From the NCBI GenBank assembly GCA_963716175.1, contig OY970296.1, positions 309,302 through 373,301 of the forward strand: DNA of 64,000 nucleotides. The letters run 5' to 3'. This document shows positions 10,273-62,875 of the stretch, piece after piece (position 1 is the first letter of the stretch; the number at the start of each line of letters is the position of its first letter). The position numbers and the translations under genes were made by a program. The notes below the pieces were generated by a model. That model was not told the origin of the DNA. It was given only the letters and a program-made list of their open reading frames with translations, and made no database searches. This DNA comes from an uncultured Armatimonadetes bacterium (GTDB lineage: Bacteria > Armatimonadota > Hebobacteria > Hebobacterales > Hebobacteraceae).

Positions 10273-10357
10273 AGACTGAAGAAGCCTACCGGGCCAGGAG
10301 GATGAAGGCTTGGCACCTAGTTCGCCCGCGCCCACCGTGGGGGCAGGGCCATCGTCA

Positions 10358-13389: not shown

Positions 13390-13441
13390 GCGACAGGGTC
13401 CAGCAGAAGGCAGATGCGAGCCATTACAGGATTGCAGTGCC

Positions 13442-17383: not shown

Positions 17384-17910
17384 CCCACGTGTTCGATTCT
17401 CCCCTGTCGCCCGACACAGCAACACCGGCACAGCCTGTGTCGCTTTCCGCATCAGCTTACCCCGCATTCCCATCGCGCCCCCGAGCGAAAGCCGCGACCC
17501 GCTGCCCTTCGGCTCGCCGCCACCGCGACAAGAGCGACATCACACTGGCTCAGCAGCAAGGCGGCGAGTGCGCCGCACCTCCGCGTCTGCACCCGACCCT
17601 ATCGCGCACGCCGTCCGCCCCGAGCCACTTTGCAGTCTAGGCGCTGCTTCCAGAGTCGTCAACAGATAGGAGGTCGCACGCCTACCAGACAGGCCGTGGC
17701 TCGGTCACGCTCCGTAACCGCAAATCCCGGCTCGCGCACGCAGGTAGCACCACGGATCCGGCTCCCGTCCCCGGCCGGCGACCACTACCTCATGTATACC
17801 ACGCTGGCACCGGCAGGTCAAACGTGGGTCGCCTCTAGCTGCGACCCGGAGGGCTGGACTCCTCGGGATTACGCCAGTCTGCGGCCACTCCCACGTGTGG
17901 CGGCGAAACT

Positions 17911-17942
17911 GCGGAGGCGCAGCAGAGCCGCTGCGCCTCCGC
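17911..17942 (-). terminator. Hairpin terminator downstream of the large PKD/SLH gene
   Basis: Perfect 13-bp GC-rich stem gcggaggcgcagc/gctgcgcctccgc with a 6-nt loop, 28 nt past the stop. On the minus strand it is followed by AGUUUCG. Confidence 0.6.
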
Positions 17943-17969
17943 GCTAACGCCCGTTGCCTTCGAATCGCT

Positions 17970-20681: not shown

Positions 20682-21128
20682 GTCCGCGCCCTACCTTTCC
20701 AACCGCGTTCGAGCGCAACGGCGGACTGGAGGCCATGCGCCCAGCCGCAACCCCTGAACGACGGACACACTCCCCCAGCGACGGGCGAGAGTTCCGGTGA
20801 CCGTGGGCGGTCCCCGGGCTCGTCCCTTCGAACCCCAGCCGACGTTCGGCTGGGCTATTGGGCCGCCGAGTGCTCCCAGGGTTTATTCCACAGTAGCGAG
20901 GCCTGCCTGAGCACCCATGCAGATCCAGGCAGGGAGCCCCTGCGATCTCCCGTAAGCGTCGCGCACTGCGGGAACCGCGCCGAGGCGGCGGCTCTGCCGC
21001 TCTGCTAGCGTTGCGTGGGCGTGTACACAGCAGCGAGCGGGGGGATCGCGGGGCTAGTGGGGTAGGCGCACCAGGAACAGCTCAGACCACTCTGGCACGC
21101 TGGCCAACGCGCATCTTCAGCTTCTAAT

Positions 21129-29388: not shown

Positions 29389-29867
29389 TGCAGCGCCTCG
29401 CCCACGGAGCGCTTCTGCTTGCGGCCCGGACGATCGGCCGGGTAGCCCAGAGGTAGCAGGCTGACCAGGTGGTGGCCATCCGGAGCTCCCAGCATCTCCC
29501 GGACCTTATCCGCATAGCCCTTCTTGTCGCCCGCCACCCAGCAGGCTCCCAGCCCCAGCGCGGCCGCTGCGATCAGGATGTTCTCAGTGGCCGCACAACC
29601 GTCTTCCAGGTAGTACTTGGTGTCCTTGCAGAACACCGCGATACAGGCGGGAGCGTCGGCGATGAACTTGCCATAGTCGGTGGTATCAGCGATGCCCTTC
29701 TTCATGCCCTGGTTCGTTATCACCACGAACTCCCAAGGCTCCTTTCCCATCGCGGTAGGAGCCAGCCGGCCGCAGTCCACCAGCTGCTCGAGCAGCTCAC
29801 GGTCCACCGGGTCGGGACGATACCTGCGCACACTTCTGCGCTGCCTGATCGCCTCTAGCGCGTCCAT
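29373..29867 (-). CDS. Nitroreductase family protein
   Basis: Translation has AIRQRRSVRRYRPDPVDRELLEQLVDCGRLAPTAMGKEPWEFVVI. Length of 164 aa is typical. Confidence 0.85.
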   Translation of the reverse strand: MDALEAIRQRRSVRRYRPDPVDRELLEQLVDCGRLAPTAMGKEPWEFVVITNQGMKKGIADTTDYGKFIADAPACIAVFCKDTKYYLEDGCAATENILIAAAALGLGACWVAGDKKGYADKVREMLGAPDGHHLVSLLPLGYPADRPGRKQKRSVGEALHWEQF

Positions 29868-44284: not shown

Positions 44285-45091
44285 CTAGATCTTGGGGGGC
44301 TTGACGCTGTAGCCGTGCTTGGCGAAGATGGCTTTGCCTTTGGCCGAGGTGACGAAGTTGATGAACTCCTGGGCCTCCTCGCGCTGCTTGGAGTAGACTG
44401 CCACCGCGGCCGGCACGTTCCGCACTCTCAGCAGCTTCGCCGGGATCTTCACGAGGTCTATCTTGTCCGGCGCCCAGGACTTGAAGGAGTCCCAGCCGAT
44501 GATGGCGTCCACCTCGCCCAGCTCGACGAGCTGCTCCGTCTGCTCGCAGCTCCCCGCGTAGGTGATGACGTTCTTCGTCACTTGCTCCTCAAGGCCAGCT
44601 CCCTTGAGGACCTCCACCGCGACATCGCCGAGGCACACGGCTCCGGCCCTTGCCAGGCCCACCTTGAGCCCCGGGCGCGCCAGATCGGCGAGCGACTTGA
44701 TGCTCTTGGGATTGCCGTGCTGAATGCAGATCGTAGGCACCAGGTAGGCCACGATCTTACGCGTCGCCGGCACCACCACCTTCTGCTTCTCAGCCTTATC
44801 CATGAAGTCGTCGGAACCGGGCATGTAGATGTCGCCCGTCTCCTCGAGCTTCATCTGGTTCAGCAGGGTGCCGCTGCCGCCGAAGGTCATATCCACGGTG
44901 ATGTTGGGGTGCATCTTCTCGAAGACCGCCTTGGCTTCCAAGGCCGGAGGCTTGCTCGCCGAGCCGATGAAGGCGGTGAGCCGAACCTGCCTGGCGGCCG
45001 GCTTCCCCAAGCTCGCAAGCATCGAGAATCCGAGCGTGAGCGCGAGCACCGCGAACGTAAGCATTGTTCGACCGATGAGACGCATCTCCAT
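44285..45091 (-). CDS. Periplasmic substrate-binding protein, molybdate/tungstate (ModA/WtpA)-like
   Basis: Signal helix, then LTAFIGSASKPPALEAKAVFEKMHPNITVDMTFGGSGTLLNQM...GDIYMPGSDDFM...GEVDAIIGWDS, resembling oxyanion-binding PBPs. No permease or ATPase gene is adjacent. Confidence 0.55.
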   Translation of the reverse strand: MEMRLIGRTMLTFAVLALTLGFSMLASLGKPAARQVRLTAFIGSASKPPALEAKAVFEKMHPNITVDMTFGGSGTLLNQMKLEETGDIYMPGSDDFMDKAEKQKVVVPATRKIVAYLVPTICIQHGNPKSIKSLADLARPGLKVGLARAGAVCLGDVAVEVLKGAGLEEQVTKNVITYAGSCEQTEQLVELGEVDAIIGWDSFKSWAPDKIDLVKIPAKLLRVRNVPAAVAVYSKQREEAQEFINFVTSAKGKAIFAKHGYSVKPPKI

Positions 45092-45119
45092 CCTCCTGTA
45101 AGACGTGAGATCGCGAGAC

Positions 45120-46550
45120 TCAGAATTTCAGCTGCATCTGCGCGTAGACCGCGTTTCCGTCCCACTTGGTGAGCTCGGAGAACTTCGGGCCGACATTCCG
45201 CAGCTCCCAGACCAGGGTGAGCCGGGTAGCCTTGTCCAGGTCGTACCAGTAGCCCAGGCTCCAGCGCTTGAAGAGGTCGTCCGGCTTGGCCCGGTTCTCG
45301 TCGAACTGATCGTACTTCACGAAGAGCAGATTAGGCTTGCTGGGGGTAACCGGGTGGCCAAGCTGCCAGTAGTAACCGCGCATATCCTTGCCCTTGTCGT
45401 TGCCGGTGACCCATTCGCTCAGGAATTGCGTCTCGCCCCAGTGGTAACGGGCGCTAACTCCATCGCGGTCTTGGCGGGTGACCGCCGCGCCCTCGCCGTT
45501 GGTGCCCGTGTACCCCGAGAGCGCCACGGAGCCGTTCTTCAGCGGGAAGTCTACTCGACCCAGGAGGTTGGACTTGTTGTTATTGTCCACCGCATCAATG
45601 TTCGTCCCATTGACCAGGGCGACATCGAACATGGGCGAGGTGGGCTTGCGCCGGTAGTTCACGAAGGCGCCGATGTCTCTCTGGTCCGGAAAGAGGCGAT
45701 CCATCCAGAATGATCGTTCCCCGGTCCACAAGTTGGGTACAGACTCCTCCAGCTCGTAGCCCCAGGGCAGAATCGCCTGGCCCATGCGGAACCTTGATTC
45801 CGGGCTGAGCTTGTAGTCAATGTACGCGGTGCGCAGCTGCGCTTTGCTGCCGGGGCCCTTTCCCTGCTCCTTGGAATCGAACTGCATCTCAACCCGGTAG
45901 GAGGCCTTCTCGCTCACCGGCCCCCGCACGTTCACGCGCACCCGGCGCACCTGGAACTCGCGCCGCCCATCGGTGGCATTATCGTCCCGGTAGCGCAGTT
46001 GCATGTAGCCGTCAATCTGGTGCGCCTTGCGCTCCACCTCCACCTTGGCGAGCCGTGTCTGCACGTCTTTCATCGCTGCCGCCAAGTCATCCACGCGCAC
46101 CCCCATTGCGACCAACTCAGAGTGAAACTCATCCAGCAGCTTCTCCACCCGCGCGATGTTCTCAGGGCTCAGGCCCTGCGGCGATGGCGCCTCTCCTGCC
46201 GGGCTGCCTGCCACGGGCGGCGCCTCAGCAGTCGTGGCCGCCGTCTCCGCCCGCGCGGTCTGCAACAAGGTCTGCCCCTGCTGTTGACAGGCCTTACCTA
46301 GACCCTCGACTGCGCGCAGTGTCAGTGCCGCCGCCTCAAAGCGGCTCAGGCGGTCTGTCCACGTGCTCAACGGCGCTGCCGGGTGACCGCTGAGCAATCC
46401 TGCCTGCGCTAGCCTGTCCAGCTCAGCGTACTGCCAGTCACCTGCGCCTATCGTCTCCGTGCCTCCCCAGGCAGCGACAACGCAGGCCAGCACCAGAACC
46501 GTGGCCGCCAGCAGCGCGAAGCTGTGCCTCCCTCGCCATCCGACCTCCAT
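45120..46550 (-). CDS. Outer-membrane porin with N-terminal SLH-like domain and coiled coil (OmpM/Slp-type architecture)
   Basis: Signal peptide. SLH-like segment GDWQYAELDRLAQAGLLSG...LSRFEAAALTLRAVEGL. Coiled coil IARVEKLLDEFHSELVAMGVRVDDLAAAMKDVQTRLAKVEVE. Alternating beta-strand region ending ...AVYAQMQLKF (C-terminal Phe). ATG 46550 has GGAGG 5 nt upstream. Confidence 0.6.
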   Translation of the reverse strand: MEVGWRGRHSFALLAATVLVLACVVAAWGGTETIGAGDWQYAELDRLAQAGLLSGHPAAPLSTWTDRLSRFEAAALTLRAVEGLGKACQQQGQTLLQTARAETAATTAEAPPVAGSPAGEAPSPQGLSPENIARVEKLLDEFHSELVAMGVRVDDLAAAMKDVQTRLAKVEVERKAHQIDGYMQLRYRDDNATDGRREFQVRRVRVNVRGPVSEKASYRVEMQFDSKEQGKGPGSKAQLRTAYIDYKLSPESRFRMGQAILPWGYELEESVPNLWTGERSFWMDRLFPDQRDIGAFVNYRRKPTSPMFDVALVNGTNIDAVDNNNKSNLLGRVDFPLKNGSVALSGYTGTNGEGAAVTRQDRDGVSARYHWGETQFLSEWVTGNDKGKDMRGYYWQLGHPVTPSKPNLLFVKYDQFDENRAKPDDLFKRWSLGYWYDLDKATRLTLVWELRNVGPKFSELTKWDGNAVYAQMQLKF

Positions 46551-46555
46551 CCTTG

Positions 46556-46586
46556 CCTCCTCTCCAACCGTCGGTTGCACGGGAGG
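46556..46586 (-). promoter_or_regulatory. SD-sequestering hairpin in the porin/ModA-like leader
   Basis: The minus-strand RNA reads CCUCC-CGUG-CAACC-GAC-GGUUG-GAGA-GGAGG-caagg-AUG. The outer stem pairs an anti-SD with the SD of the porin gene. Confidence 0.45.
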
Positions 46587-46968
46587 ATACTACGACTCAT
46601 CTGTGTCACTCCCAACAAGGACTGCGCACATATCCGTGAACGCGGTCCGGTGCTATCTTCTGGGCGAGATCATCTACTCGTCAGGCTAGGGGCTTGCCAG
46701 AGGCACGTCTCGGCTTGCGGAGCTATGAACGAATAGAGTCAAGTCGAGGTTGCTCGCGGCGGCCTGGCGCTTGCTGGCGCGTTGGGGCGGCCACGAAGGC
46801 GCCGGGAGCGGCACCCATCGCGTAACGGATGGGCCATCCGAGGCGCCGAGGGTGGCGGCCAAGAGGATGTCGCAGTGTGCTGATCGAACCGCACCCGGAA
46901 CTGCACCGAGGCCTGACTGGCGCAGCCGTGGCAGAGGGGGCAGACCGGGAACCACAGAGGAAGATGAG

Positions 46969-47910
46969 ATGCCGAACCGCGACGACGTGGCTGAGCTGAC
47001 TGGGAAGGTGAAGCGGGCGGCGATGGAAGAGGGCGCGGCCCTGGTGGGGGTGGCTCCGGTGGAACGGTTCGATCCCATGCCACCGCGCTACGACGCCCCG
47101 CCGAAGGGAAGTCACCCGCGCGATTTCCTGCCGGAGGCGCGGTCAGTCGTCTCCATTGCCATGCCCATCCTGAACCCGGTGCTCGATGCGCCGGCCGCGC
47201 TGGCGGACCGTGAGATGGAGATGATCCCGCCCCACGCGAAGTACGAGTACCTGGAACTGCTCTACGATCGGGTTGGCCACTCCCTTCACGACGTGAAGCT
47301 CGAGCTTATCGCCCAAGCTGTCGGGCAACTGCTGATGAGGCAAGGCTACGACAGCATGATCTTCCCGACCGCAGGGCTGCACCCGCACCTCCAGGGCATG
47401 AGCGACGTGGAAATCTGGGAGACTCATCCGGACCACGCGCCCTTCCAGTATACCTTCGGCCCGTTCTCTCACCGCCACGCGGCCACGCGAGCGGGGCTCG
47501 GCGAGTTCGGCTATAACAACCTTGTGCTCACCAGAGAGTTCGGCGCCCGGCAGCGCCTCAACTCGATCATCACCGACGCCGAGCTGAAGCCTGATCCACT
47601 GATCACCGATCCCATCTGCCTCCGCGACAGCTGCAAGCTGTGCCTGAAGGCTTGCATCGCCCAGGCCATCACCATGCGAGACGATCCGGAGGTGCGTGAC
47701 TATCGTTCAGTTGAGAGCGATGATCACCGTCGCATCTTCGTAGACACGCCCGCAAAGACGGACCCCAAGCTGTGCCGCCGCCGCAGGGACGGCATTCCCG
47801 ACTCGCCGGTTCGGGGCGACTGCATCCGGATCTGCCCGCTGCCCCGGGAACCCCGACATCTGCCGAAGCGACTGCGAGCGATGGTGGAGGAATGGAGGGC
47901 AGGCCGCTGA
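46969..47910 (+). CDS. QueG/reductive-dehalogenase-related 4Fe-4S protein
   Basis: Translation has SHRHAATRAGLGEFGYNNLVLTREFGARQRLNSIITDAELKPD (QueG-like block) and the cysteine clusters CLRDSCKLCLKAC and CRRRRD...GDCIRICP. ATG 46969 has GAGGAAG upstream; the longer track ORF from 46750 is unlikely. Confidence 0.55.
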   Translation: MPNRDDVAELTGKVKRAAMEEGAALVGVAPVERFDPMPPRYDAPPKGSHPRDFLPEARSVVSIAMPILNPVLDAPAALADREMEMIPPHAKYEYLELLYDRVGHSLHDVKLELIAQAVGQLLMRQGYDSMIFPTAGLHPHLQGMSDVEIWETHPDHAPFQYTFGPFSHRHAATRAGLGEFGYNNLVLTREFGARQRLNSIITDAELKPDPLITDPICLRDSCKLCLKACIAQAITMRDDPEVRDYRSVESDDHRRIFVDTPAKTDPKLCRRRRDGIPDSPVRGDCIRICPLPREPRHLPKRLRAMVEEWRAGR

Positions 47911-47983: not shown

Positions 47984-49957
47984 CTATGCCCGCCTACCCA
48001 GCACCGCGAAGACCAGCTCGCGCAGGAGCGCGGTGGTGGCATCACCGACCAACAGACCCAGGAACACAGGCAGCGCGGTGCGGTGTGCCCGCAGGCCGCC
48101 GTAGCGGAGCAACAGCGACTTGATCAGCCAGGTGAGGAAGAGCGCCGGCACAATCCCTGCGATGGTGTTCGACATGGCGATGGGAAAAGCCACCGGGTGC
48201 AGCGGCCACCAGACGTATCGCAGCTTCAGGTAGTAGAGCAGCGATGTCACTGCGGCGGAAAACAACATTGCCAGCGACCCGCTGAGATCCGGGTGTGTGG
48301 GGTTCTCGAGCTGGGAGCGAAGCTCATCGGTGGCCCACCCACCAATGAGCAGGTTGTAGACGTGGGTGTCCCCCGAAGTCATCCCCAGGTGGTAGCCTAC
48401 GCGGAGGGTGGCCCAAAAGTAGGCGAGCAGCGCCAGCACTGGCACCACCGCCATGGCTGCGGCGAGCCGCCGCCGCTCCATCCGACCTCCCTCTGCCATC
48501 TTCAGCCCCTCGAGCTGCACAGGCATCGGGTGGTTGCGCTGCTCCAGGAGCAGCGGCCGCAGCATGTAGAACATGCCCATGGTGCGCGGCCCGAGGGCGC
48601 CCGTGCCCGCCACCGTAGGCAGGACCCAGCTCGGCATCGCCCCGTAGAGCTGGTGGCTCGGCGCGCCGAGCTGCGCGCGCACCCGGCACATGATCATCAC
48701 CATCAGGAAGTAGTGCCCAAGGAAGATCGCGGTCACCCAGGCGGCCAGGCCGCCGCGCTGCAGCAGCCACCACAGCACCGCCAGCCCTGCCAGCCCGCCC
48801 AGCACCGCGGTGCGGTAGCTGAGCGCCTCCTCCCGGTCCTCGCACAGCGGCGACCGCAGCCCGGCCGCTCTCCGCAGCACCTGCACCAGAAAGCGCCGGT
48901 CCAGCCATAGCACCACCAGTGCCAGCGCGATGAAGCCACCCGCGGTCTGCTGCTCGCCATAGGGGAATCCCGACCACTTGTTGACACACCATCCGAGCTG
49001 GCCCGACACCACGTACTCCGCAGCCCACACCCAGCCGAACACGAACAGGGAGAACGCAAGGTCCAGCGGGATCAGGTAAGTCAGCCCCAGGTACCATGGC
49101 GCCCACGATAGGTCGTAGAATCGCAGGAAACTCCAGGGAGGGTTGTTCTCCACCAAGGTGGCGAAGTTCCAGCTCATCGGCACTCGTGGCAGGCTAGGTA
49201 CCAGCCCGACCAAGGTGTTCCAGACCGCGATGCCGGCCGCCGCCCCCGCGCCAAGCCAGAACAGCTTGCTTCCGAACAGGGCATAGCGGTCGTCGGCGAG
49301 CTGGACGGGCAGCACGGTCATGGGAAATGCGAGCTTCTCTTGGTCGGCCCACCGGCGGCGCAGGATGGAGTTCATGCACAAGCCCACCCACATGATGGCC
49401 GCCACCAGGCAAGTCCACCACAGCGCCGGTGTTGCCCAGGCCTTCAGAATCCGCGCCGCGTACGGGCTCGTGTTCCCGTAGTAGAACCCCTCCAACACCT
49501 CCCGATCTTGCACCGTCAGCCAGCTTGGCAGATTGGGCCACACGATCTCCTGCCAGCGGTTCTGAGCGGTGGCGAACCAGAAGGGATAGGTCATGTAGAT
49601 GTAGGTGGAGCCGCCTATGTCCCACAGGCTGCACGTCAGGCCCGTGCCGAGCGCCAGCATTAGGTAGATGGTGAGCAGCTCCCCCGCAGAGAACGCCCAC
49701 TGCGGCCTCCGGTGCTGAAACCAGCGGTTCAGCAGTGCGCCCAGAAAGAGCGCGCCGACGGTATTGATGAACAGCGAGTCATCTCCGGTTATCCCCGCCC
49801 ACAGCCACAGCCCCCGCACCAGGAACAGCACGTTGAGGGGGGTAAGCGCGAGGCCGAGCACAACCGCGCGGGCGGTGACGCCTCCGCGCCGGGTGGCCGG
49901 CGCGACTGCAATCACTTCCCTGTCGGCCGCGCTCATATCAGGCGGAATGGCACCCAC
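47984..49957 (-). CDS. Large polytopic membrane protein of unknown function (paralog of 27394..29388)
   Basis: 657 aa with the same helix layout and conserved blocks as the first copy (see that feature). Confidence 0.6.
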   Translation of the reverse strand: MGAIPPDMSAADREVIAVAPATRRGGVTARAVVLGLALTPLNVLFLVRGLWLWAGITGDDSLFINTVGALFLGALLNRWFQHRRPQWAFSAGELLTIYLMLALGTGLTCSLWDIGGSTYIYMTYPFWFATAQNRWQEIVWPNLPSWLTVQDREVLEGFYYGNTSPYAARILKAWATPALWWTCLVAAIMWVGLCMNSILRRRWADQEKLAFPMTVLPVQLADDRYALFGSKLFWLGAGAAAGIAVWNTLVGLVPSLPRVPMSWNFATLVENNPPWSFLRFYDLSWAPWYLGLTYLIPLDLAFSLFVFGWVWAAEYVVSGQLGWCVNKWSGFPYGEQQTAGGFIALALVVLWLDRRFLVQVLRRAAGLRSPLCEDREEALSYRTAVLGGLAGLAVLWWLLQRGGLAAWVTAIFLGHYFLMVMIMCRVRAQLGAPSHQLYGAMPSWVLPTVAGTGALGPRTMGMFYMLRPLLLEQRNHPMPVQLEGLKMAEGGRMERRRLAAAMAVVPVLALLAYFWATLRVGYHLGMTSGDTHVYNLLIGGWATDELRSQLENPTHPDLSGSLAMLFSAAVTSLLYYLKLRYVWWPLHPVAFPIAMSNTIAGIVPALFLTWLIKSLLLRYGGLRAHRTALPVFLGLLVGDATTALLRELVFAVLGRRA

Positions 49958-50486
49958 TCGGAGGAACGGCTATCTGAGCCATCACAACGATCTCCTCCCG
50001 CGGAGCTTCGAAAAGGTGCTCGTGGCAAAGACACCTAGGTCAGGAGGAGACGGACCACAATCCAGATTGAACCTGATGCTCACAGGTGGTCTTCGGGGAT
50101 GCGGAGTCTCGGTCCTGCCAGCGGACAGCTTCGCGAGCTGGGAGAGGTGAGCAGCGACCGGGGCACGCTCAGGTTGAGACTGGAGCAGGTAGCTGCTCCG
50201 CTCGCCGCCTGTGTCCGTCGGCGAGCGATGGGGGGCATCTGGGCAGCGCCTCCGGCCCCCGCTTTCGGGCCGAGGGGCAGAACTGCGGTACAGCGTCCTT
50301 CCTGCACTGCACACCGGATGATGACGTGACGCTGACCGTCCATGCTCGCCCCTATGCGCGCCACACCGCGATTGCCCGCAGGGAGGCGATTCGGCGGTGC
50401 CGAACGGTCTCGCAGATCGGCGCCATTGCGAGGCTCCGACAACGTAACCGGCGGCTAGGGCGAGCAGCGGATCCCGAGGACCAGGG

Positions 50487-53484: not shown

Positions 53485-53803
53485 GCTTGCTCAGGACTCC
53501 TCTGGCAGCCTTGCTGGGGCGAGCCCGGACGCGCGGACGCAAATCCAGCGCAGCAATGTGATTACTTCGACCCGCAGCCCGCGATCACCTCCAGGCAGCA
53601 CCGATCCGGCAGCGGGTCCGGCAGGTGTCGCGGCCAGACCGGCAGTATAGTAGGGACATCCCCAGCCGTTGGCGCTAGGAGATATGGTGAGGCCCGCGAT
53701 GACGCTGCGTTGTGCGATGGCTCTTGCATTGCTGATCGCGCTGGCTGCTTACCGCGAGCCGCTGGGCACCGCTGGGCAGTCGCCCCCCACGAAGGAGAAC
53801 ACG

Positions 53804-55489
53804 ATGACTCAGGTCGAGAAGTACGATCCATCATTCTGGGTGTTCGGCTACGGACACCCCGAGCATCTGCAGCTCATCAAGGACCTGGGGTTTATGGGCG
53901 TAGGATTTTGGGCTGCTGACCGCGATGGCGAACGCATCAAGTACTACTTCGATTCGCCGACGCTGCGGCGGTTCGACTGGGCCACGCGGTCCCAGGAGCG
54001 GCCCAACCTCAGCGAATACGCGGCGCAGGCGCACGCCGCCGGCCTGAAAGTGATGGCCAATATGGAGGGTGTAAACCCCTACCACTGGGAGGCCGGTCGG
54101 AAGAACTGGACGCCCGAGATCATCGGCAGCGTGATGGCCGACTTGCACAACGACGGCGCCGACCGCTGGTTCACAGAGTGCGCTGCAGGCTGGCCCTCGT
54201 TGTTCTTTGCGCTGGCCGACACCGGCCGGAAGATCGGCATGGAGTACCAGGAGGGAGACGACCCCTCCTACCTCTACTACTCTGACTCTGAGACCGGGCA
54301 GCAGGGCTTCACTGACGTGTACCGTCGCGGCCATATGGTCAGCATGTACCACTACCAGTACCGGCGTGACGAGATCGGCAAACAGGCAAGCCTCGCGCAG
54401 GAAGGATCCCTGGCCTACGGTTTCGCCCGTGACTGGGGCCTGCCGACGGTCATGGTCTACCCGGTCGGGCACAACTGGGGCGAGCTGCCGGAGTACTGGG
54501 AGGGAATTCTCAAGCCCAGCATCGCCATCCGCGCCCTCCAGTTCCGGGTCCGCGACATCATGCTCATCGGCCTCGATGACGAGAAGGCGCGGCTGGTAGA
54601 TATCGCTGGCGTGAAGCAGTGGGTTTCCCACCTGGTGGAGAGGAACGCGCAAGAGAAGAGACCGGTGCTGAACGTCGTCGCCCATCTGAGGAGGGGCGAG
54701 GGCGAGCACTGGCGCGACTTCGCCAGCTCCGGCGATGCGATCACCAGTGGGGCCTTCCATGCGGGATGGAACGTGGTGGCGAGCACGGAGCCGCTGGCCG
54801 CTGCGGACGCCTACTACGTCTACACCGCGGGCAACGACGCGCAGGGGACGCTCGACCTCACGGCCGAGATCGCCAAGCTGTTTGAGGGCAGCAAGCCGGT
54901 CTTCCTTCAGATCGGGTCCGACATCCCCAGCGGAGGCGACTTGACACCCAACTGGCGCCGGGCTCTGGCTGCCTGCGGCGTGAAGCCGGAGGCGACGTTC
55001 AGCTATGATGACATGCCGGCAAGCGGGACCTACAAGGGCGCTCCCTTCACCTACACCGGCATCTTCACCGCTTACGAGGTGACAGAGCGGCGGCATGGGA
55101 CGCTGATCCCGCGCTCGGCGGTGACCGGGAGCATCGCCGCGGAGGGCGACGGCGTCCCGCTCATCATCAGCGCTGGGAACAAGCACCTGATCCCTGCGAA
55201 CTGCATCCGGTGGCAGGTCATGTATCCGATCAGCGATTTGCTGGCGGGATGCGGAGTGCGCGCTTCCTCGGACGTATGGGGGATTGCGGGAGAGCAGGTA
55301 ACAGTGCTCTTGGCGACGCACGACACCGAGCTTGATATGGTCATCCCGGGACTGGCGAAGGGCGCCAAGATCCGGGTCACGCAGTGGGACAGGCTCCACC
55401 AGATCACATATCAGGACACCGTCACCTACACTGGCTCATACCACAGGAGCATGAAGCAGTTCGATTCGATTGTCTTGGAGGCGCTCTGA
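53804..55489 (+). CDS. Hypothetical protein (possibly glycoside-hydrolase-like barrel)
   Basis: Long ORF with GC3-rich codons. ATG 53804 has GAAGGAG 6 nt upstream. An alternative start at 53699 would add a signal-like helix. No recognisable catalytic motif. Confidence 0.45.
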   Translation: MTQVEKYDPSFWVFGYGHPEHLQLIKDLGFMGVGFWAADRDGERIKYYFDSPTLRRFDWATRSQERPNLSEYAAQAHAAGLKVMANMEGVNPYHWEAGRKNWTPEIIGSVMADLHNDGADRWFTECAAGWPSLFFALADTGRKIGMEYQEGDDPSYLYYSDSETGQQGFTDVYRRGHMVSMYHYQYRRDEIGKQASLAQEGSLAYGFARDWGLPTVMVYPVGHNWGELPEYWEGILKPSIAIRALQFRVRDIMLIGLDDEKARLVDIAGVKQWVSHLVERNAQEKRPVLNVVAHLRRGEGEHWRDFASSGDAITSGAFHAGWNVVASTEPLAAADAYYVYTAGNDAQGTLDLTAEIAKLFEGSKPVFLQIGSDIPSGGDLTPNWRRALAACGVKPEATFSYDDMPASGTYKGAPFTYTGIFTAYEVTERRHGTLIPRSAVTGSIAAEGDGVPLIISAGNKHLIPANCIRWQVMYPISDLLAGCGVRASSDVWGIAGEQVTVLLATHDTELDMVIPGLAKGAKIRVTQWDRLHQITYQDTVTYTGSYHRSMKQFDSIVLEAL

Positions 55490-55655: not shown

Positions 55656-56810
55656 ATGAGCGCTCAGAAGATGTTGGTCAGTGCTGTAGTTGTGCTGCTG
55701 GCTGTGGCCGGATCAGGGTTCGCACAGGGCGGCGGGCGCATGGGCCGCGGCGGTCGCGGCGGCTTCGGTCCGGGCAGCGGCGGTGGCCCCGGCGGGCCCT
55801 TCGACCCGGCACAGATGCGTCAGGCCTTGATGGCAGCAGGCGCGACCGAGGCCGACCTGGCGGCTATCGAGAGCTACCGCACGGCCCAGCGTAGCGCCAT
55901 GGATCCGCTGATGCAGGCGATGCTAGGCCTACAGGAAGCAGCAGGAAAGAGCGCCACGAACGAGCAGGCGACGCAGGCTGTGAGTAAGTACGAGGCGCTG
56001 AAGGCGAGCACGCTGACGCAACTGGCGAAGGCCGACGAAGGTCTCAGAGCGCAGCTTCGGCTATCGGCCAGGCCGAAGCTGCATGCTGCCTTGCTGGGGA
56101 TGGGCGTGCTCGATGACGGCCTGAGAGGGTTCGGAGGCATGAGAGGCGGCCGGCCGGGCCCGCCAGGTGGATTTGGCGGACGCGGGGGCCGCATGGGTGG
56201 CCCTGGTATGAACCGGGGGGCTTCACCTTCCTTTGACAGCCAAACGCTCCCGAACACAGACGCGGAGAAGACGATCCTGGCCGTGATCCAGGACCTGGAG
56301 GCGGGCCCACGGATGGAGAACGTCCCGCCCGAGGACGGCAGGCTGCTGCGGGTTCTGACGGAGGCAATCGGAGCCAAGCACGCGGTCGAGATCGGCACTT
56401 CCAACGGGTACTCGGCCCTCTGGCTCTCCCTGGCGCTACGGGACACGGGCGGGAAGCTGACCACGCATGAGATAGACCCCGAGCGCGCCGCTCTGGCCCG
56501 GGAGAACTTCGAGCGCGCTGGCGTTGGCGACATCGTCACCGTCGTTGAGGGCGATGCTCACGAGACGGTGACGAGGATCAAGGAGCCGGTTGACTTGCTG
56601 TTCCTTGATGCCGACAAGGAAGGCTACCTTGATTACCTGAACAAGCTTCTGCCGGTGGTGCGTCGCGGTGGGCTGGTGGTGGCCCATAACATGAACCCGG
56701 CGCAGGCAGATCCGCGGTACGTTGCTGCCATCACCGAGAACCCAGCGCTAGAGACGATCTTCCTGCACATGGAGGGAATGGGTGTCGGCGTGACTCTCAA
56801 GAAGGACTGA
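55656..56810 (+). CDS. Exported protein: signal peptide, RGG/Gly-rich segments flanking a helical region, C-terminal class I O-methyltransferase (family 3/COMT-like)
   Basis: Signal peptide MSAQKMLVSAVVVLLAVAGSGFAQ. Gly-rich segments GGGRMGRGGRGGFGPGSGGGPGG and GFGGMRGGRPGPPGGFGGRGGRMGGPG. Methyltransferase part VEIGTSNGYSALWLSLAL...LFLDADKEGYLDYL...GGLVVAHN. Confidence 0.7.
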   Translation: MSAQKMLVSAVVVLLAVAGSGFAQGGGRMGRGGRGGFGPGSGGGPGGPFDPAQMRQALMAAGATEADLAAIESYRTAQRSAMDPLMQAMLGLQEAAGKSATNEQATQAVSKYEALKASTLTQLAKADEGLRAQLRLSARPKLHAALLGMGVLDDGLRGFGGMRGGRPGPPGGFGGRGGRMGGPGMNRGASPSFDSQTLPNTDAEKTILAVIQDLEAGPRMENVPPEDGRLLRVLTEAIGAKHAVEIGTSNGYSALWLSLALRDTGGKLTTHEIDPERAALARENFERAGVGDIVTVVEGDAHETVTRIKEPVDLLFLDADKEGYLDYLNKLLPVVRRGGLVVAHNMNPAQADPRYVAAITENPALETIFLHMEGMGVGVTLKKD

Positions 56811-56867
56811 GGATCGGCCGCAGCGCACCGGGCGGGCAACCGTGCCCACCGCTATCTGGTGTCCACA

Positions 56868-57710
56868 CTACGTCGGCGGGTGCTCTTCCCCCGGAATCCC
56901 CACCGCATCCGCGGGGCACTGCCGGCAGAGCCGGAACTGCTTGATGATGCGCTCGCACTGCAAGCGTGTCTCGCGCAGTTCATGGCAAGATGGAGGTGCG
57001 AGATGCCTGAACCTCCCCAGTGGGATGAGCGGGGTGATGTTCTGTATGTGGGCACCGAGTCTGCTGACCACCCCGGCCACCTTCTCCAGATGTCCGCCGT
57101 CGTTCAGCCCTGGAAGGAGGATGCTGTTAACCTTGATCGCGAATCCCAATGCGGCTGCCTTTTCCAGCCCGGCGAGTTGGCTCTCCAGCAGGGCCTTCGC
57201 TCCTTCCAGGCCCGTTAGCCTCTTGCCACCATGCTCGACGTAGGCATAGATCCTTTCGCCGATCGTGGGGTCAACGGTGTTCATCGTAACCGTCAGTGTC
57301 CGCACCCCCAGATCCCACAACTGTTCTGAGCGCTCGCACAGCAGCAATCCATTGGTGCTCACGCACAGCATCAAGGCAGGATAGCGGGCGCTGACCAGCT
57401 GCAGTGTCTCGAAGGTGCTGGATTGGCAGAGAGGCTCCCCTGGCCCCGCAATCCCGACCACTGCCAGGCTGGCATCATGCGCCAGGTACTGGTCTAGTCG
57501 TCGCAGCGCCTCCTCCGGGGTCAGGACCCTGTCGGCTACAGCGGGACGGTAGCTGTGGTAGGTCTTCCCCCCGATCTCCCGCTCGCAGTAGTTACAGCCG
57601 AGGTTGCAGTCCGGGGCCACAGGCAGATGCATCCTGCCATACCGGAAGTGAGCCGAAGGCGAGTAGCAGGGGTGCTTGTCCAGATTCACCACGGCAGCGC
57701 TTCTCGTCAT
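56868..57710 (-). CDS. NifB-like radical SAM protein (core domain only)
   Basis: Translation has KHPCYSPSAHFRYGRMHLPVAPDCNLGCNYCEREIGG...VVGIAGPGEPL...VSTNGLLL...TVTMNTVDP, closely following the NifB radical-SAM domain pattern. It is 280 aa with no NifX-like extension. Confidence 0.85.
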   Translation of the reverse strand: MTRSAAVVNLDKHPCYSPSAHFRYGRMHLPVAPDCNLGCNYCEREIGGKTYHSYRPAVADRVLTPEEALRRLDQYLAHDASLAVVGIAGPGEPLCQSSTFETLQLVSARYPALMLCVSTNGLLLCERSEQLWDLGVRTLTVTMNTVDPTIGERIYAYVEHGGKRLTGLEGAKALLESQLAGLEKAAALGFAIKVNSILLPGLNDGGHLEKVAGVVSRLGAHIQNITPLIPLGRFRHLAPPSCHELRETRLQCERIIKQFRLCRQCPADAVGIPGEEHPPT

Positions 57711-57752
57711 CTGCCGGCCTCGTCGTAGGCCTCTCTCATTGCCGGTAAGTGC

Positions 57753-58610
57753 TCAACCGGGTAGACCATCGGTGTGCGCATAGACTGACTGGTAGAGCAC
57801 CTCCAGGTCAGACCACTCCATGGGGGTTGGGATGACGCGGATTTCATTGTCCAGCACCGCGTCTGCAAGCCGGCGGAAGTTCCCCGCGGCGAAGGAGTCA
57901 GGCAGGGCCTCCATCACCGTCTTCCCGTGGACCTCGCACATCTGGATATCCTGGCTGCGAGGGATAGAGCAGACCAGAGTGCATCCCAACTTGGAGGCGA
58001 AGTGCTCCAGCAAGCGGTTCTCGTAAGCTTCCTCCCCGCGGTGATTGCAGATGATGCCGGCCAACCGGGACGGACTGTGCTGGGCAAGGCGAGCAATCCC
58101 TCGCGCGATGTTGTTCGCCGCGTAGAGGCTCATGAATTCCCCGGTGCAGACCAGGTAGATCTCGCGAGCGTACCCCATCCGAATCGGCTGAGCAAAGCCG
58201 CCGCACACCACATCCCCTAGCACGTCGTAGAGCACCACGTCCAACTGGTAACGGTCAAACGCACCTTTGTCCTTGAGGTAGGAGATAGCAGTGAGCACCC
58301 CTCGCCCCGCGCATCCGATGCCAGGCTCCGGGCCACCGGACTCCACGCACTTGACGCCCTGGTACCCCTCGAACACAACTCCTTCCAGAGGGACTGTCTC
58401 CGCGTCTTTTCCGGCCGCCAGCTGGTCGCGCATCCGGTCCAGGACGGAAGGGATCATCCGGCCGCCGGTGAGATTGCGGGTCGAGTCTCGCTTTGGGTCG
58501 CACCCGATCTGCATCACCTTGCATCCGCGCTCGGCGAAGGCGACGGAGAGGTTTGCGGTGATGGTGCTCTTCCCAATGCCGCCTTTCCCATAGATCGCGA
58601 TCTGTCTCAT
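57753..58610 (-). CDS. NifH-like ATP-dependent reductase (nitrogenase iron protein family)
   Basis: Translation has MRQIAIYGKGGIGKSTITANL, MQIGCDPKRDSTR, EPGIGCAGRGVLTAI, YDVLGDVVCGGFAQPIR and EFMSLYAANNIARGI. The ATG lies 2 nt after the upstream stop (TGAGGATG). The 71-codon 5' extension in the track overlaps the upstream gene. Confidence 0.9.
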   Translation of the reverse strand: MRQIAIYGKGGIGKSTITANLSVAFAERGCKVMQIGCDPKRDSTRNLTGGRMIPSVLDRMRDQLAAGKDAETVPLEGVVFEGYQGVKCVESGGPEPGIGCAGRGVLTAISYLKDKGAFDRYQLDVVLYDVLGDVVCGGFAQPIRMGYAREIYLVCTGEFMSLYAANNIARGIARLAQHSPSRLAGIICNHRGEEAYENRLLEHFASKLGCTLVCSIPRSQDIQMCEVHGKTVMEALPDSFAAGNFRRLADAVLDNEIRVIPTPMEWSDLEVLYQSVYAHTDGLPG

Positions 58611-58612
58611 CC

Positions 58613-59941
58613 TCACCACTTGGATCGGTACCTCTTTTCGCGGGAGCGCCACCGCTGTTGGTGGTCGTTCTCTAGGATCTCCAGCAGATGCAGCAGACCC
58701 TCGTACCCGAAGTAGGGCCGGTCGGTCATATAGAAGCGATCCGTCGGGGAGATGACGTTGAAAGAGAACGGAATGCCCAGCTCTTGAGCGAGGTGGTGTT
58801 CGACCATGCTGCCAAACACGCATGCAGGCTTGCTCTCCCTCAGGCCTTGCTTGACGTCGTAGGCGTCCGCGTCGAGGGTCACGGGAGTGGCAAGCGTGAG
58901 CTCTTCGAGCTCACGCTTGAGAATGGAACGGGCGGTCTCATCGGACGATCTCAGGAAGATCGAACAGGGTATCGCCTCCAGGTCCTCCATGATCAGCCGG
59001 ACTAGCGGGATGCCAACAGTCGCGTCCGCTACGATCGCGGCCTCCACCCGGTGGAAGAAAGCAATCCCGGGACCGCGCAACCGGATGGCGCAGATGACCT
59101 GCTCGTGGCCTTCCTCAATCAGCTCCTGCGCCGTCTGCTCCGCGCCAAATCGCTGGCCCAGGGCCTCCAGCCATCTTCTCGTGTTCGACAGCCCAATGGG
59201 GAGCGGTATCTGCCGGCAGACCGGCTCGATGTCGTATCGTTCGGCAAGCTTGTCGGCGATCCCCCCGCCGGCATCATGGCTCAGCAGGAGACTGGTCTCG
59301 GCCGACGGAGTGCGGGCGATCCCCTCCATGTCCTGCAGATGGGTCAAGACGCTGACTACGGTGACTCCCATTTCAGCGAGCACCCCTCGCACCCAGGCCA
59401 GATCGGCATGCCACGTCGGATTCGCGCTGGCATGAGGGGCAATCAGCGTGACTGAGTTCTTAACCTTTCCCCCGCTATCGCGCGCAGCGAAGTCCAGCAG
59501 CTTTCCCAGCGCCAGGTCAATCCCCTGGTATTCGTCTCCCCGAAAGCCCGCGCACTCGATCGGCAGGATCTGCGCGCTGGACTCCGGAGCCATCAGCTCT
59601 GCGACTGCGGCGATGTCGTCGCCGACGACCTCCGGCCCGCAAGCGGAGAGGATGAACAGATAGGGCATGCCATAGGCCTCAGCGTCTCGGATGGTCTCCT
59701 TGAGCCGCTCCTCTCCCCCGTACACGATCTCCTTCTCGCAGAGCTTCGAAGAAACGACATGGGCCTCGGAGAAGTCCACATGCTGGCTGGCGAGCGCGTT
59801 GCCGATGAGGCCGTGGCAGCCTTGGGGACAGTGCAGGACAATGCAGGCGTCTCGGATCCCAGCCACCGTCTTGGCCGCTCCTGCGAAAGCGCACCGGAGG
59901 TAGGGGTCCAGGCAGCTCCGCTCTGTGGGGTTCTCTGGCAT
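58613..59941 (-). CDS. Nitrogenase NifK/NifN-family (beta-type) component-1-like subunit
   Basis: 442 aa. Cys17 (RCAFAGA), Cys42 (VLHCPQGC) and Cys101 (ILSACGPEVVGDD) are spaced 25/59, as in the NifK P-cluster ligands. Confidence 0.8.
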   Translation of the reverse strand: MPENPTERSCLDPYLRCAFAGAAKTVAGIRDACIVLHCPQGCHGLIGNALASQHVDFSEAHVVSSKLCEKEIVYGGEERLKETIRDAEAYGMPYLFILSACGPEVVGDDIAAVAELMAPESSAQILPIECAGFRGDEYQGIDLALGKLLDFAARDSGGKVKNSVTLIAPHASANPTWHADLAWVRGVLAEMGVTVVSVLTHLQDMEGIARTPSAETSLLLSHDAGGGIADKLAERYDIEPVCRQIPLPIGLSNTRRWLEALGQRFGAEQTAQELIEEGHEQVICAIRLRGPGIAFFHRVEAAIVADATVGIPLVRLIMEDLEAIPCSIFLRSSDETARSILKRELEELTLATPVTLDADAYDVKQGLRESKPACVFGSMVEHHLAQELGIPFSFNVISPTDRFYMTDRPYFGYEGLLHLLEILENDHQQRWRSREKRYRSKW

Positions 59942-59976
59942 GGGCCTTCTCTGGATCCGGGAGATCGGTCAGCTCG

Positions 59977-61641
59977 CTACCACAGGTCCCCGTGCACTGC
60001 GATGCCGTACATTGCCTGCCGCATCAAGCCAGAGCGAGGCCGATCGGCGTGCTTTATCGCCGAGGCGGCGCGGCGAGCGATGTTCTGTACGCCAGTGAAG
60101 CCGAAGTGAGGGAAGGCGATCTCGGTGTCCAGGTTGACCACCGGGACGCCGGGGAACCGCAACGGGCTGCCGAAGTAGACGAAATCGTCCGCTCCGCCGA
60201 TGAAAGCCTCCAGCTCGTCCTGCGTCTGCTTGGAGACTTCGTAGCTGCCCATCTCAAAGGCGCCTTTAGTGAGCACGACTTCCGGATTCTCTCCACTGTC
60301 GAGCAAGAACCGAACCGCCGCCTTCCGCTCCCGCAGGGTATACGGGTGCATGTTGAAGATCACGGCTTGCATGCCGAATTCGGCCGCCATCCGGGCGAGC
60401 GCGATGGACCGCATGGGCCCGGTCTCTATCAAGGCCGTCCGACCTTGGAGCAAGGACCTAGCCTCCCTCAAGTCGGGCTCGATGCGCTCGGCCTCACGAG
60501 CTGTGAACTCGCGCGCCTGATCGTCCAGGCCCAAGGGCTCGGCAATCTTGCGAACCCAGTCCATGGTGGCTCCCATCCCGTAGGGGAGCCCGGATTCGCA
60601 GAAGGGAATCCCAAACCGCTCCTTCATGAGCAAGCCGATGCGCCTGCCCCAATCGAAGCACCAGGACGTGTTCAACGCCGCGCAGGGAGCACGTCTGACC
60701 TGTTCCAGGGTACAACCACCCGCCACTACACTGTGCAGCTTGGCCCCGAACTGGGAGAGGATGAGCTGCAGCTCCTCGATGTCCTCCCGGATCTCCGTGT
60801 ATGGGGGGCCCGCTCGCGCGCCGACGATGTTCACGCTGTGCGGAATGGTCTCTGTGGGAGGCTCCATCAGATCCACAATGACGCGGAAGGCCTGCTCGTG
60901 CCCACTTCGGAAGTCGCCCCCAAATCCCTCGCTGCGGATGGTCGTGATCTCCGCCTTCACCTGCCCCCGCATCTGCCGGGCGATCCCCTCGACGTCATCC
61001 CCAGTGATTCCGGGGCAGCAAGTGCTCATCACCACGATGAGATCCGGGCAGTACTTCTGGTCCACCTCCAAGATGGCCCGGGCGAGCTTGCCTTCGCCGC
61101 CAAAAACGACGTGACTCTCGTTCAGTGCAGTGCATACCGTGGGTTCGTAGGGCCGGCCGCGGTATTGACAGCCTGCGACCCTAAGGCCCCGAATGGAGTA
61201 GGTGCACCCGCGCGGGCCGTGCACGATCGGCACCACGTTGTTGATCCCGCTGATCACTGTAGCCGCGGTCTGGAACTTGCAGGGGGGCGCGTGAGAGGCC
61301 TGTAGCTGGGAGGAGAGCTCGCCGGCCTCCACCCTTCGCAGGTACTCATCCAGCCTGCCCTGAAACACGATGTAATCCGTTTCCGCCACGTCACTGATAC
61401 TAGACCCTTTGGACCTGCGAAGCAAGGACTGATTCCGCCCGCGCTGCCAACCCGCGGTCTCCCGCCCATGCCCGCACGGTGCTAGACGCCCATTGCTGTA
61501 ACCACGGCAAGCAACGCATCCGCATCTGCCCCAGAGCCACGTCGCCTTGACAGAAGTCCTGCCACCGGCTACCCTTGGCCCGTCTGGTCGAGGCAAGTCA
61601 GGCGGGAGTGGGAAGGTGGCTGCCGCATTGGCTGTGCTCAT
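59977..61641 (-). CDS. Nitrogenase NifD/NifE-family (alpha-type) component-1-like subunit
   Basis: Cys121 (PPCKF), Cys146 (VHGPRGC), Cys208 (MSTCCPGITGDD) and Cys328 (SWCFDWGRRIGLLMKERFGIPF). The true start may be internal (e.g. GTG ~61389), because the first ~90 codons look atypical. Confidence 0.8.
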   Translation of the reverse strand: MSTANAAATFPLPPDLPRPDGPRVAGGRTSVKATWLWGRCGCVACRGYSNGRLAPCGHGRETAGWQRGRNQSLLRRSKGSSISDVAETDYIVFQGRLDEYLRRVEAGELSSQLQASHAPPCKFQTAATVISGINNVVPIVHGPRGCTYSIRGLRVAGCQYRGRPYEPTVCTALNESHVVFGGEGKLARAILEVDQKYCPDLIVVMSTCCPGITGDDVEGIARQMRGQVKAEITTIRSEGFGGDFRSGHEQAFRVIVDLMEPPTETIPHSVNIVGARAGPPYTEIREDIEELQLILSQFGAKLHSVVAGGCTLEQVRRAPCAALNTSWCFDWGRRIGLLMKERFGIPFCESGLPYGMGATMDWVRKIAEPLGLDDQAREFTAREAERIEPDLREARSLLQGRTALIETGPMRSIALARMAAEFGMQAVIFNMHPYTLRERKAAVRFLLDSGENPEVVLTKGAFEMGSYEVSKQTQDELEAFIGGADDFVYFGSPLRFPGVPVVNLDTEIAFPHFGFTGVQNIARRAASAIKHADRPRSGLMRQAMYGIAVHGDLW

Positions 61642-61766
61642 GCTTCTTGCACCGGTCTCCTCAGCAGTGTCGAGGCGCGCCTTCCTGGCGCGCCTTTTCT
61701 AGTGGCCCTGCGCAGAGAACAGACCGCGGCTGCGTTGCTCCATACAGCCGGGTACGCATGGACGAG

Positions 61767-61778
61767 GAAAGGAGGTGA
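61767..61778 (+). promoter_or_regulatory. Conserved purine box, copy D: GAAAGGAGGTGA
   Basis: It lies 74 nt upstream of ATG 61841. Confidence 0.5.
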
Positions 61779-61840
61779 AGCGAAGCCCTGTGTCGCGTGA
61801 CATGTCGTAGCTGCAAGCAAGAGAGGAGGTCTGAGAGACC

Positions 61841-62875
61841 ATGGTCCGGAGAAGGCGTGGCTTCACCTTGATCGAGCTGTTGGTTGTGATCGCAATCATT
61901 GCGATCCTCGCGGCGATGCTCTTCCCGGTTTTCGCCCGGGCGCGCGAGTCGGCCCGCAAGATCCAGTGCCTCTCGAATGTCAAAAACGTCGCGATGGCGG
62001 TCCAGATGTACCTCGCAGACTGGGACCGCTACATGGTGCTGGAGCACCGCGCTGAGGTGCTCGCCTACTACGACGCGAAGAACCCCGACGGCGGGTACAG
62101 CAGCAGCTATCACTGCGCGCACGGCACCTACTTCGCCAACCCCTACCTGAGGATGCCGGTGCTGCTGGACGAGTACATCAGGAACCGGGATGTCTGGCGG
62201 TGCCCAAGCGCGAAGTTCGAGCAGGGCGCAATTTCGATTAATGGCTGGCCGGACTGGTTCGCCTGGCGGCTGAAGTACGACGGCCAGGTGTGTCACACCA
62301 ATACCTGCTGCCCCCAGTACCCAAACGGCTGGGGAGGCACCGTCACCGACTCAGGGGCCCAGCAGATGGTGGCAAGCGGCATCGGGGGGACTAAGGATAC
62401 CGCGCTTGGGGCTTTCGCCATGAGCCTCACCATCAACCGCGGGGACTATGAGGCCAAGGAGTCGCAGATTAGCGATCCGTCCACGCATGGAGTGGTCGCC
62501 GATGGCGGGAACGTCACGGATGAGCTGGCGGAGGCAACCGCGGCCTACCCCGACGTCTGCCTGCTGGACTGCGGCAACTCGGTGTGCAGTTGGGTGGATT
62601 GGGAGAACTGCAGCGAGAACGCGAGCTGCGGCTTGTACAACCGGGCGCCCACGAGCGGGGTCTTGCTGAGCGACCTCCAGATGCGAAAGTCCTACGCGCG
62701 TCACTTGGGTGGAACCAATGTCGGCTTCTGGGACGGGCACGCCGCCTGGATCAGCTCGGAGGCCTTGATAGACGCCGTCGAGGCGGGCCAGCTCCAAGGC
62801 TTCGACGTGTCCTGGGGCCCGCGCTCCTACTGCGGCTTCGCCGAGGAGTACCCGGGAGTGCCGACACTGCGATAA
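61841..62875 (+). CDS. Prepilin-type N-terminal cleavage/methylation domain protein, DUF1559 family
   Basis: Translation has [54 protein letters not shown] and [17 protein letters not shown]. Confidence 0.9.

Follow-up and report, generated by a model that had tools for sequence, protein, structure and literature searches.

Which reaction could four nitrogenase-like genes serve in a bacterium when they stand together on one strand, with no further genes of their kind in 64 kilobases (kb) of surrounding DNA? The stretch in question, positions 309,302 to 373,301 of contig OY970296.1 (hereafter the window, meaning all 64,000 nucleotides analysed), carries at 56868-61389 a module of four intact minus-strand genes, namely D-like, K-like, H-like and NifB-like. 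This module is a real, selected and self-contained nitrogenase-like system of an uncharacterised lineage. With a probability of roughly 0.6, its genes form one operon for a self-sufficient reductase that is driven by adenosine triphosphate (ATP), holds an [Fe8S9C]-type cluster made by NifB and is part of a distinct D-K-H(-B) clade, so far uncharacterised, of the nitrogenase superfamily.

Only four non-chlorophyll nitrogen-fixation-like (NFL) lineages have any assigned function, namely Nfa, Cfb, Mar (methylthio-alkane reductase) and Isr, and a 2026 review names the uncharacterised NFL lineages as the main challenge of the field (PMC13474568). The clade described here is abundant in genomes from anoxic peat, sediment, groundwater and digesters and spans bacteria and methanogens. 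Its version in the window, a compact 4.5-kb four-gene unit, is suited to heterologous expression and substrate screening, and makes a good target for a new NFL function and possibly for a new mode of carbide-cluster binding.

Gene models, family scores and clade position

A preliminary description of the locus had reported four tightly packed open reading frames (ORFs) on the minus strand, and the sequence bears this out, with intergenic gaps of 35, 2 and 42 nucleotides along the order D, K, H, B. The D-like (alpha-type) catalytic-component subunit (59977..61389; 470 amino acids, GTG start; Pfam Oxidored_nitro, 1.4e-78) is followed by the K-like (beta-type) subunit (58613..59941; 442 amino acids; Oxidored_nitro, 4e-73), the H-like Fe protein, an ATP-dependent reductase (57753..58610; 285 amino acids from MRQIAIYGKGG; Fer4_NifH, 3.3e-98), and a NifB-like protein (56868..57710; 280 amino acids; Radical_SAM), all encoded on the minus strand. 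As described before, the last comprises the core of a radical S-adenosylmethionine (SAM) enzyme; it has no NifX domain. The start of the D-like gene had been placed at the ATG at 61641, the beginning of a mechanical ORF of 554 amino acids. The most likely start is instead the GTG at 61389, because the public gene model is 470 amino acids long and all 30 aligned relatives begin there; moreover, the Oxidored_nitro domain begins only at residue 121 of the longer frame. The promoter of the operon is presumed to lie in the divergent intergenic region between the D-like gene and a pseudopilin gene (61390..61840), a placement that stays presumptive because a scan of 56400-62000 for consensus sigma-70 promoters and terminators reveals nothing above chance.

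Measured against a close relative (locus L002), the ratio of nonsynonymous to synonymous substitution rates (dN/dS) is 0.10-0.17 for all four genes, values that are approximate since dS is near saturation. The module is thus maintained by purifying selection and its genes are not decaying. Its G+C content (about 63%) is the same as that of its surroundings. Long antisense ORFs of up to 437 amino acids over D, K and H (for example 59992-61305, plus strand) are not genes; they are by-products, given a G+C content of 63-65% and their overlap with conserved coding frames. A phmmer search of the whole window finds no second D/K pair, NifH or NifB, in keeping with the earlier remark that no second D/K pair lay nearby.

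All four products fall below every curated NCBIfam equivalog cut-off. The best model for D is nifE (177 bits against a cut-off of 505), and the nitrogenase models nifD (132.6 against 653.6), VNFD (85.6 against 823) and ANFD (75 against 874) are missed by wide margins. K scores best with BchB (112 against 490) and reaches 48 of the required 427 with nifK and 19.6 of 327 with nifN; H scores 351.5 with nifH (cut-off 394.35) and 350.7 with CfbC (402), and B scores 271 with nifB (343.65). Tetrapyrrole-type models are missed as well (CfbD, 40 against 268; BchN, 49 against 420; BchZ, 56 against 529). An identity as CfbCD, DPOR or COR (Groups IV-B and V) was accordingly rejected, the module possessing all six P-cluster cysteines and no tetrapyrrole genes nearby.

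Solved structures place the proteins similarly. B matches the minimal NifB structures 6Y1X (1.9e-82) and 7BI7 (1.2e-73), H matches solved NifH (3.4e-83), and the best solved relative of K is MarK (9D9U_C) at only 84 bits. A profile of the clade's D proteins matches archaeal NifD 9P1X at 160 bits, clostridial NifD at 154 and a NifEN fusion at 154; MarD, at 130 bits, is somewhat further away than NifD and NifEN. Here 9P1X and 9SPZ are methanogen nitrogenases, and 9FMG and 9D9U are MarDK of R. rubrum. Comparison of folds does not discriminate, in that NifD, MarD, NifE, VnfD and BchB all lie at template-modelling (TM) scores of 0.6-0.66 when an AlphaFold2 model (predicted TM score 0.81) is run with Foldseek against the PDB.

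In an exhaustive search of 1.84 billion cluster representatives the D family proves compact: one representative matches at 52% identity and 529 bits, two sisters (P0123 and P0124) at about 40% and about 400 bits, and the rest at no more than 33% and 223 bits, with the Mar representative at 110 bits. The nearest matches outside the family likewise fall below all curated models. In a neighbour-joining tree of 48 taxa (100 bootstraps) the family of the window protein forms its own clade (100% bootstrap), which groups with P0123 and P0124 (98%) and then with an unnamed 18-member group (86%). Curated NifE/NifEN anchors (100%), NifD together with VnfD (92%; the VnfD is the curated one from locus L085) and Mar-type sequences (100%; anchored by 47% identity to a 9FMG_A fragment) each form a separate group, which puts the D protein outside NifE, NifD and Mar.

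The unnamed neighbour group has its own setting. At L087:2459-7288 a 588-amino-acid fusion of two NifH-like domains is followed by a lone Oxidored_nitro gene (P0128) and a UbiD-family decarboxylase, a different and also uncharacterised nitrogenase-like arrangement.

Conserved ligands and a proposed mechanism

Which metal clusters the module might carry was judged from alignments of 30 D, 68 K, 58 H and 20 module-linked B sequences. Positions were assigned with two rulers, namely curated VnfD and an A. vinelandii NifD sequence that we take to be faithful, since it agreed at 12 of 12 landmark positions and its alignment with VnfD was clean. C37, C62 and C125 of D, invariant in all 30 sequences, align with NifD Cys62, Cys88 and Cys154, and invariant C244 aligns with NifD Cys275. 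In K, C17, C42 and C101 align with NifK Cys70, Cys95 and Cys153 and are invariant in all 68 sequences. Beyond these, D contains the extra invariant cysteines C74, C86 and C226, and K contains C10 and C68, likewise invariant, as well as C242, kept in 97% of sequences. The N-terminal region of D has no cysteine where maturases carry the Cys48/NifE-Cys25 residue (PMC8890362).

The remaining landmarks of the nitrogenase active site are largely replaced. Val is invariant at NifD position 70, the Gln191 position is an invariant Arg161, H, Y and F all occur at the His195 position, and the variable His442 column shows D, A, S or T but no His. An identity as Mo, V or Fe nitrogenase was therefore rejected, given the missed curated cut-offs and the missing His442, Gln191 and conserved His195. 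So were the 'Methanosarcina-like' and 'Group VII' nitrogenases, in which the cluster reads nifH-nifI1-nifI2-nifD-nifK and His442 is present. The Mar Loop-I segment 'PDILLARHGG' reads '(I/V)Y.G.P.R(Q/F)P' in the clade, with no His at the position of Mar His429.

One further histidine stands out. His348 of D is invariant within an N-x-H-P motif that the two sisters and the 18-member neighbour group share, and aligns with NifD alpha-380-383 (Glu380/Phe381/His383), a segment lining the cofactor pocket. That His348 might be the counterpart of nitrogenase His442 was considered and rejected, because profile alignment to Cp NifD and an anchored alignment both place it at alpha-380-383. MarD His375 lies within hydrogen-bonding distance of the belt sulfide S2B (PMC13474568) and, judging by the numbering offset, should fall roughly at the N-x-H-P region.

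The motifs quoted earlier for H and B are all present. In H, the P-loop (GKGGIGKST), switch I (CDPKRDSTR), switch II and the cluster cysteines C100 and C136 are invariant in 58 sequences, and the window protein also contains GCAGRGV and DVLGDVVCGGFA. B contains HPCY...CNLGCNYC, and HPC15, H28, C35/C39/C42, C116, C252, C262 and C265 are invariant in the 20 module-linked proteins; the radical-SAM motif CX3CX2C, the HPC motif, the histidine of K2 and the C...CxxC ligands at the C-terminus are thus all in place. Directly after CX3CX2C, a cysteine that we take to be a ligand of the K1 cluster is replaced by Gly-Gly ('CEREIGGKTYH'; window 57561-57572, residues ~47-50) in the window protein and in L002 only. 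It is kept in the Chloroflexota module-linked proteins and in solved NifB ('DC' in 6Y1X). Judged by this substitution, the NifB-like lineage of the window and L002 may bind a K1-type cluster differently or make another product.

From these conserved residues we infer a four-step scheme. The NifB-like radical-SAM enzyme would fuse two [4Fe-4S] units and insert a carbide, yielding an [Fe8S9C] L-type cluster. This cluster would pass straight into D with no EN scaffold taking part, as in Mar (PMC13474568, PMC12552129). In D, Cys244 (the NifD Cys275 equivalent) would anchor it together with a second ligand, different from both His442 and Mar His429, for which His348, whose N-x-H-P motif lies at the cofactor pocket, is the best candidate. 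The H dimer, with its predicted [4Fe-4S] cluster and MgATP, would then hand over electrons singly to a bridging cluster of the P-cluster type, to which D and K contribute three cysteines each, and these electrons would move on to the active-site cluster. Finally, a small substrate would be reduced, probably neither N2 nor the thioethers used by Mar. N2 is unlikely because His442, Gln191, a conserved His195 and a nifV/EN/X/I context are all missing.

Several points weigh against this picture. The tree that separates the clade is a neighbour-joining rather than a maximum-likelihood tree and was built without NfaD, IsrD or the published IV-D/IV-E references. The metal clusters and the activity are predicted for all clade members, and the second cofactor ligand is a candidate. 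Lacking the presumed K1 cysteine, the window's NifB-like protein may form a product that differs from the canonical L-cluster. The sister pair around P0124 sits in the usual vnfEN position, a placement that speaks for a scaffold role, at least in that lineage, and in the host the search covered the 64-kb window only.

A more specific form of the proposal is that the clade is a separate catalytic lineage which holds a carbide cluster on the Cys275-type cysteine and on a third ligand position not seen before, His348, maybe with the extra cysteines, and catalyses a reaction new to the family. We put this forward tentatively and regard it as doubtful. An ancestral reconstruction of the common ancestor of nitrogenase and Mar arrived at a ligand set resembling the Cys275-type cysteine of the clade, with neither of the known histidines (PMC12552129); by this resemblance the clade could show the first binding mode of such clusters.

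Distribution, NifB linkage and alternative functions

A scan with one genome per species found 112 relatives of D. The nearest (81% identity) comes from a metagenome-assembled genome (MAG) of a peat Armatimonadota, and others at 49-53% from MAGs of Dehalococcoidia, Anaerolineae, Methanoregulaceae, Methanolinea, Methanosarcina, Methanothrix and Bathyarchaeia; the bacterial carriers are Chloroflexota and an Armatimonadota-like lineage. Every fetched locus long enough to show it has the order D-K-H on one strand. Of the loci that extend 2.5 kb or more downstream of H, those labelled bacterial have a NifB-like gene 3' of H in 14 of 15 cases and those labelled archaeal in only 1 of 33. For methanogens, an apparently essential nifB at another site of the genome is reported (PMC13474568). 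With NifB in cis in the bacteria and elsewhere in the methanogens, the module seems to depend on the NifB product in every setting, the simplest reading being that it carries along a NifB only when the host lacks one. This pattern is independent genomic evidence for carbide-cluster chemistry beyond nitrogenase and Mar. Two copies of the module, as D-K(-H), lie on different contigs of one MAG in an Anaerolineae (L023/L024) and in a Methanoregulaceae (L050/L060), so that some genomes may hold paralogous copies.

Gene neighbourhoods differ between the two domains. In bacterial loci no neighbour but NifB recurs beside the module. Several methanogen loci (for example L083, L039, L053 and L071) contain, contiguous and on one strand, an ATP-binding cassette (ABC) ATPase, an ABC-2 permease, D, K, H and a TPMT/TehB-type methyltransferase, and a metallo-beta-lactamase-fold protein and a major facilitator superfamily (MFS) transporter recur near methanogen modules. 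At L083 ~7000-14500, and likewise in L039, L053, L071 and L048, the upstream ATPase is DrrA-like and the downstream methyltransferase is of the SAM type. This context hints at reduction of a small molecule followed by methylation and export, which we treat as a lead rather than a finding, and it gives no hint of nitrogen, tetrapyrrole or sulfur-assimilation metabolism. The ABC-2 exporter/D-K-H/TPMT arrangement suggests one possible reaction, in which a small compound, toxic or containing a chalcogen, would be reduced and the product then methylated and exported.

Could the module instead build a cofactor for another enzyme? NifB, NifEN and NifH are the minimal set with which the iron-molybdenum cofactor is made in vitro, and on this account D and K would be a NifEN/VnfEN-like scaffold that, with H and B as partners, makes a carbide cluster for a nitrogenase encoded at another site of the genome or for the L-cluster clients of methanogens. 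NifE is indeed the top NCBIfam match of D, and D, like NifE, has no His at the His442 position, but the 177 bits are no better than the 180 that the same model gives a Mar-type protein, and the NifE-type Asn of the His442 column is not conserved in the clade. NifN keeps a single bridging-cluster cysteine ([4Fe-4S] in place of the P-cluster); K keeps three, all invariant, and scores poorly with nifN. The preliminary description had considered that D and K might branch inside NifE/NifN, and the curated anchors stand apart from D. L-type clusters are used outside nitrogenase in methanogens (PMC13474568), and a further point for a scaffold comes from the sister P0124. A V-nitrogenase cluster at L085:3793-14686 (an ENA metagenome scaffold; the same in L086) encodes VnfG, a VnfK-like protein, and VnfH and VnfD that exceed curated cut-offs, and its 'EN' slot, directly behind these genes, holds a non-canonical pair, P0124 (508 amino acids; 40% identical to the window clade; nifE score ~145 bits) and a 445-amino-acid partner that keeps the three P-cluster cysteines, followed 3' by an ABC importer and AnfO. 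In the clade itself, by contrast, no nitrogenase structural genes and no second D/K pair occur within 10 kb of the module in any of ~80 loci, the bacterial NifB is dedicated to the module, and the maturase-type N-terminal cysteine is missing from D. We consider a scaffold role for the window's module unlikely.

Two catalytic alternatives borrow the function of a better-studied relative. A methylthio-alkane-reductase-type enzyme would cleave C-S bonds of volatile organosulfur compounds for sulfur acquisition, and the parts list is the same as that of MarBHDK (Group IV-C; 9FMG, 9D9U): four protein types, six P-cluster cysteines, a Cys270/Cys275-type cluster anchor, a dedicated NifB homologue without NifX, and no EN scaffold, homocitrate synthase or His442. 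MarK is the top solved match of K, and the TPMT-type thiol/chalcogen methyltransferase often found 3' of H in archaeal loci could act on a thiol product. The Loop-I Arg428-His429 motif needed for Mar activity, conserved in nearly all Group IV systems (PMC13474568), is however missing from the clade, which carries extra cysteines in both subunits, has the order D-K-H-B rather than B-H-D-K, and stands apart from Mar in the tree and at 110-130 bits. Sulfur genes, metY, metC and sulfonate-transport genes among them, neither recur beside the module nor occur in the window. We find this function improbable; of the two options offered earlier, an uncharacterised minimal nitrogenase-family enzyme is supported and Mar-like membership is not. 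More improbable still is a minimal, homocitrate-free N2-reducing enzyme like the proposed Nfa systems (NfaBHDK, Group IV-A; Endomicrobium proavitum, Heliophilum fasciatum). Nfa is implicated in N2 fixation despite having no His442 (PMC13474568, PMC9447857), and it too is a stand-alone four-gene set with NifB, P-cluster cysteines, a Cys275-type ligand and extra cysteines near the D-subunit P-cluster ligands. In a comparison made by description only, the ligand cysteines are 53/78/146/257 in NfaD and 37/62/125/244 in the window D, the gene orders differ, and Nfa is reported with the Mar-type His that the clade lacks. The invariant gatekeeper Val70 position and a ModA-type molybdate binder encoded 11.7 kb away would fit N2 reduction, but the invariant Arg at the Gln191 position, the variable His195 position and the lack of His442 do not; no PII/nifI, nifV, nifEN or nifX lies near the module in any locus, and the archaeal context consists of exporters and a methyltransferase, not nitrogen metabolism. 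Mo-nitrogenases without NifEN (Roseiflexus nifHBDK; Methanocaldococcus infernus 9SPZ) also form a minimal set with NifB, with a cofactor thought to be assembled on DK, and the archaeal NifD structures 9P1X and 9SPZ are among the best solved matches of the clade (132-160 bits). Theirs, however, is a true NifD of Group III with His442, Gln191 and His195, which the window D lacks.

The reading of the module as a distinct reductase lineage also has to be set against existing categories. The preliminary description had named Mar as the characterised non-diazotrophic relative with a NifB homologue. This is outdated: NifB homologues stand beside the NFL genes of Nfa, Mar and many Group IV systems (PMC13474568, PMC9447857), so that carrying NifB is less exceptional than had been assumed. 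The window fits exactly the Group IV category of a 'four-nif-gene set (nifHDKB)' (Pi et al. 2022, PMC9447857), with H, D, K and B and no E or N. This category is a gene count rather than a clade and mixes Nfa, Mar and uncharacterised lineages; the D-K-H-B clade, with its ligand pattern and its division between bacteria and methanogens, does not feature in it. While the category is already known, the clade's ligand set, gene order and distribution appear to be undescribed, with the IV-D and IV-E of North et al. 2020 left unmatched, labels that are used inconsistently between papers. A preprint of September 2026 that treats how the NFL enzymes expanded was considered as a possible earlier account and set aside; its subject is the Mar paralogues of R. 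palustris.

Window neighbourhood and host

The genes flanking the module are as described before, a methyltransferase and a pseudopilin. Pfam identifies the first as an O-methyltransferase, whose N-terminal region is Gly-rich, and the second as a DUF1559/N_methyl protein. The convergent O-methyltransferase beside the NifB-like gene is taken as coincidental, because it belongs to Methyltransf_3, unlike the TPMT-type enzymes of the archaeal loci. The window also encodes DUF1559 pseudopilins, a sulfatase, GH2/GH42/GH123-like hydrolases and polysaccharide-synthesis genes, in line with the polysaccharide-degrading host proposed earlier; together with the nearest MAG, this content suggests an Armatimonadota-like heterotroph.

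The ModA-type molybdate binder (TIGR01256, 87 bits against 62.5) lies at window 44288-46589 on the minus strand, directly downstream of a Porin_O_P-family porin and outside the ~5 kb considered in the preliminary description; no modB or modC adjoins it. Two paralogous large DUF6785+DUF6784 proteins are encoded at 27397-29505 and 47987-49969, both on the minus strand, and a further member lies at L002:4977-6962, on the strand of the D-like gene and immediately upstream of it. These placements indicate that the module has moved relative to neighbours shared by the two loci.

Other genes of the window have less familiar architectures. At 46729-47907 (plus strand) a 393-amino-acid protein matches the epoxyqueuosine reductase QueG and Fe-S domains of reductive dehalogenases weakly and below threshold and has no Pfam match at 1e-5, and at 53669-55489 (plus strand), between the sulfatase and the methyltransferase, a predicted protein of 606 amino acids has no Pfam or NCBIfam match. 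Two surface proteins at 16148-20690 (minus strand) combine multiple PKD repeats with C-terminal SLH domains, which suggests an S-layer-anchored cell surface. Finally, a stop-to-stop ORF of 812 amino acids at 10280-12715 (plus strand) joins GNAT (Acetyltransf_6), radical-SAM and SPASM domains and lies inside a polysaccharide-biosynthesis cluster with glycosyltransferases and a flippase-like Polysacc_synt protein.

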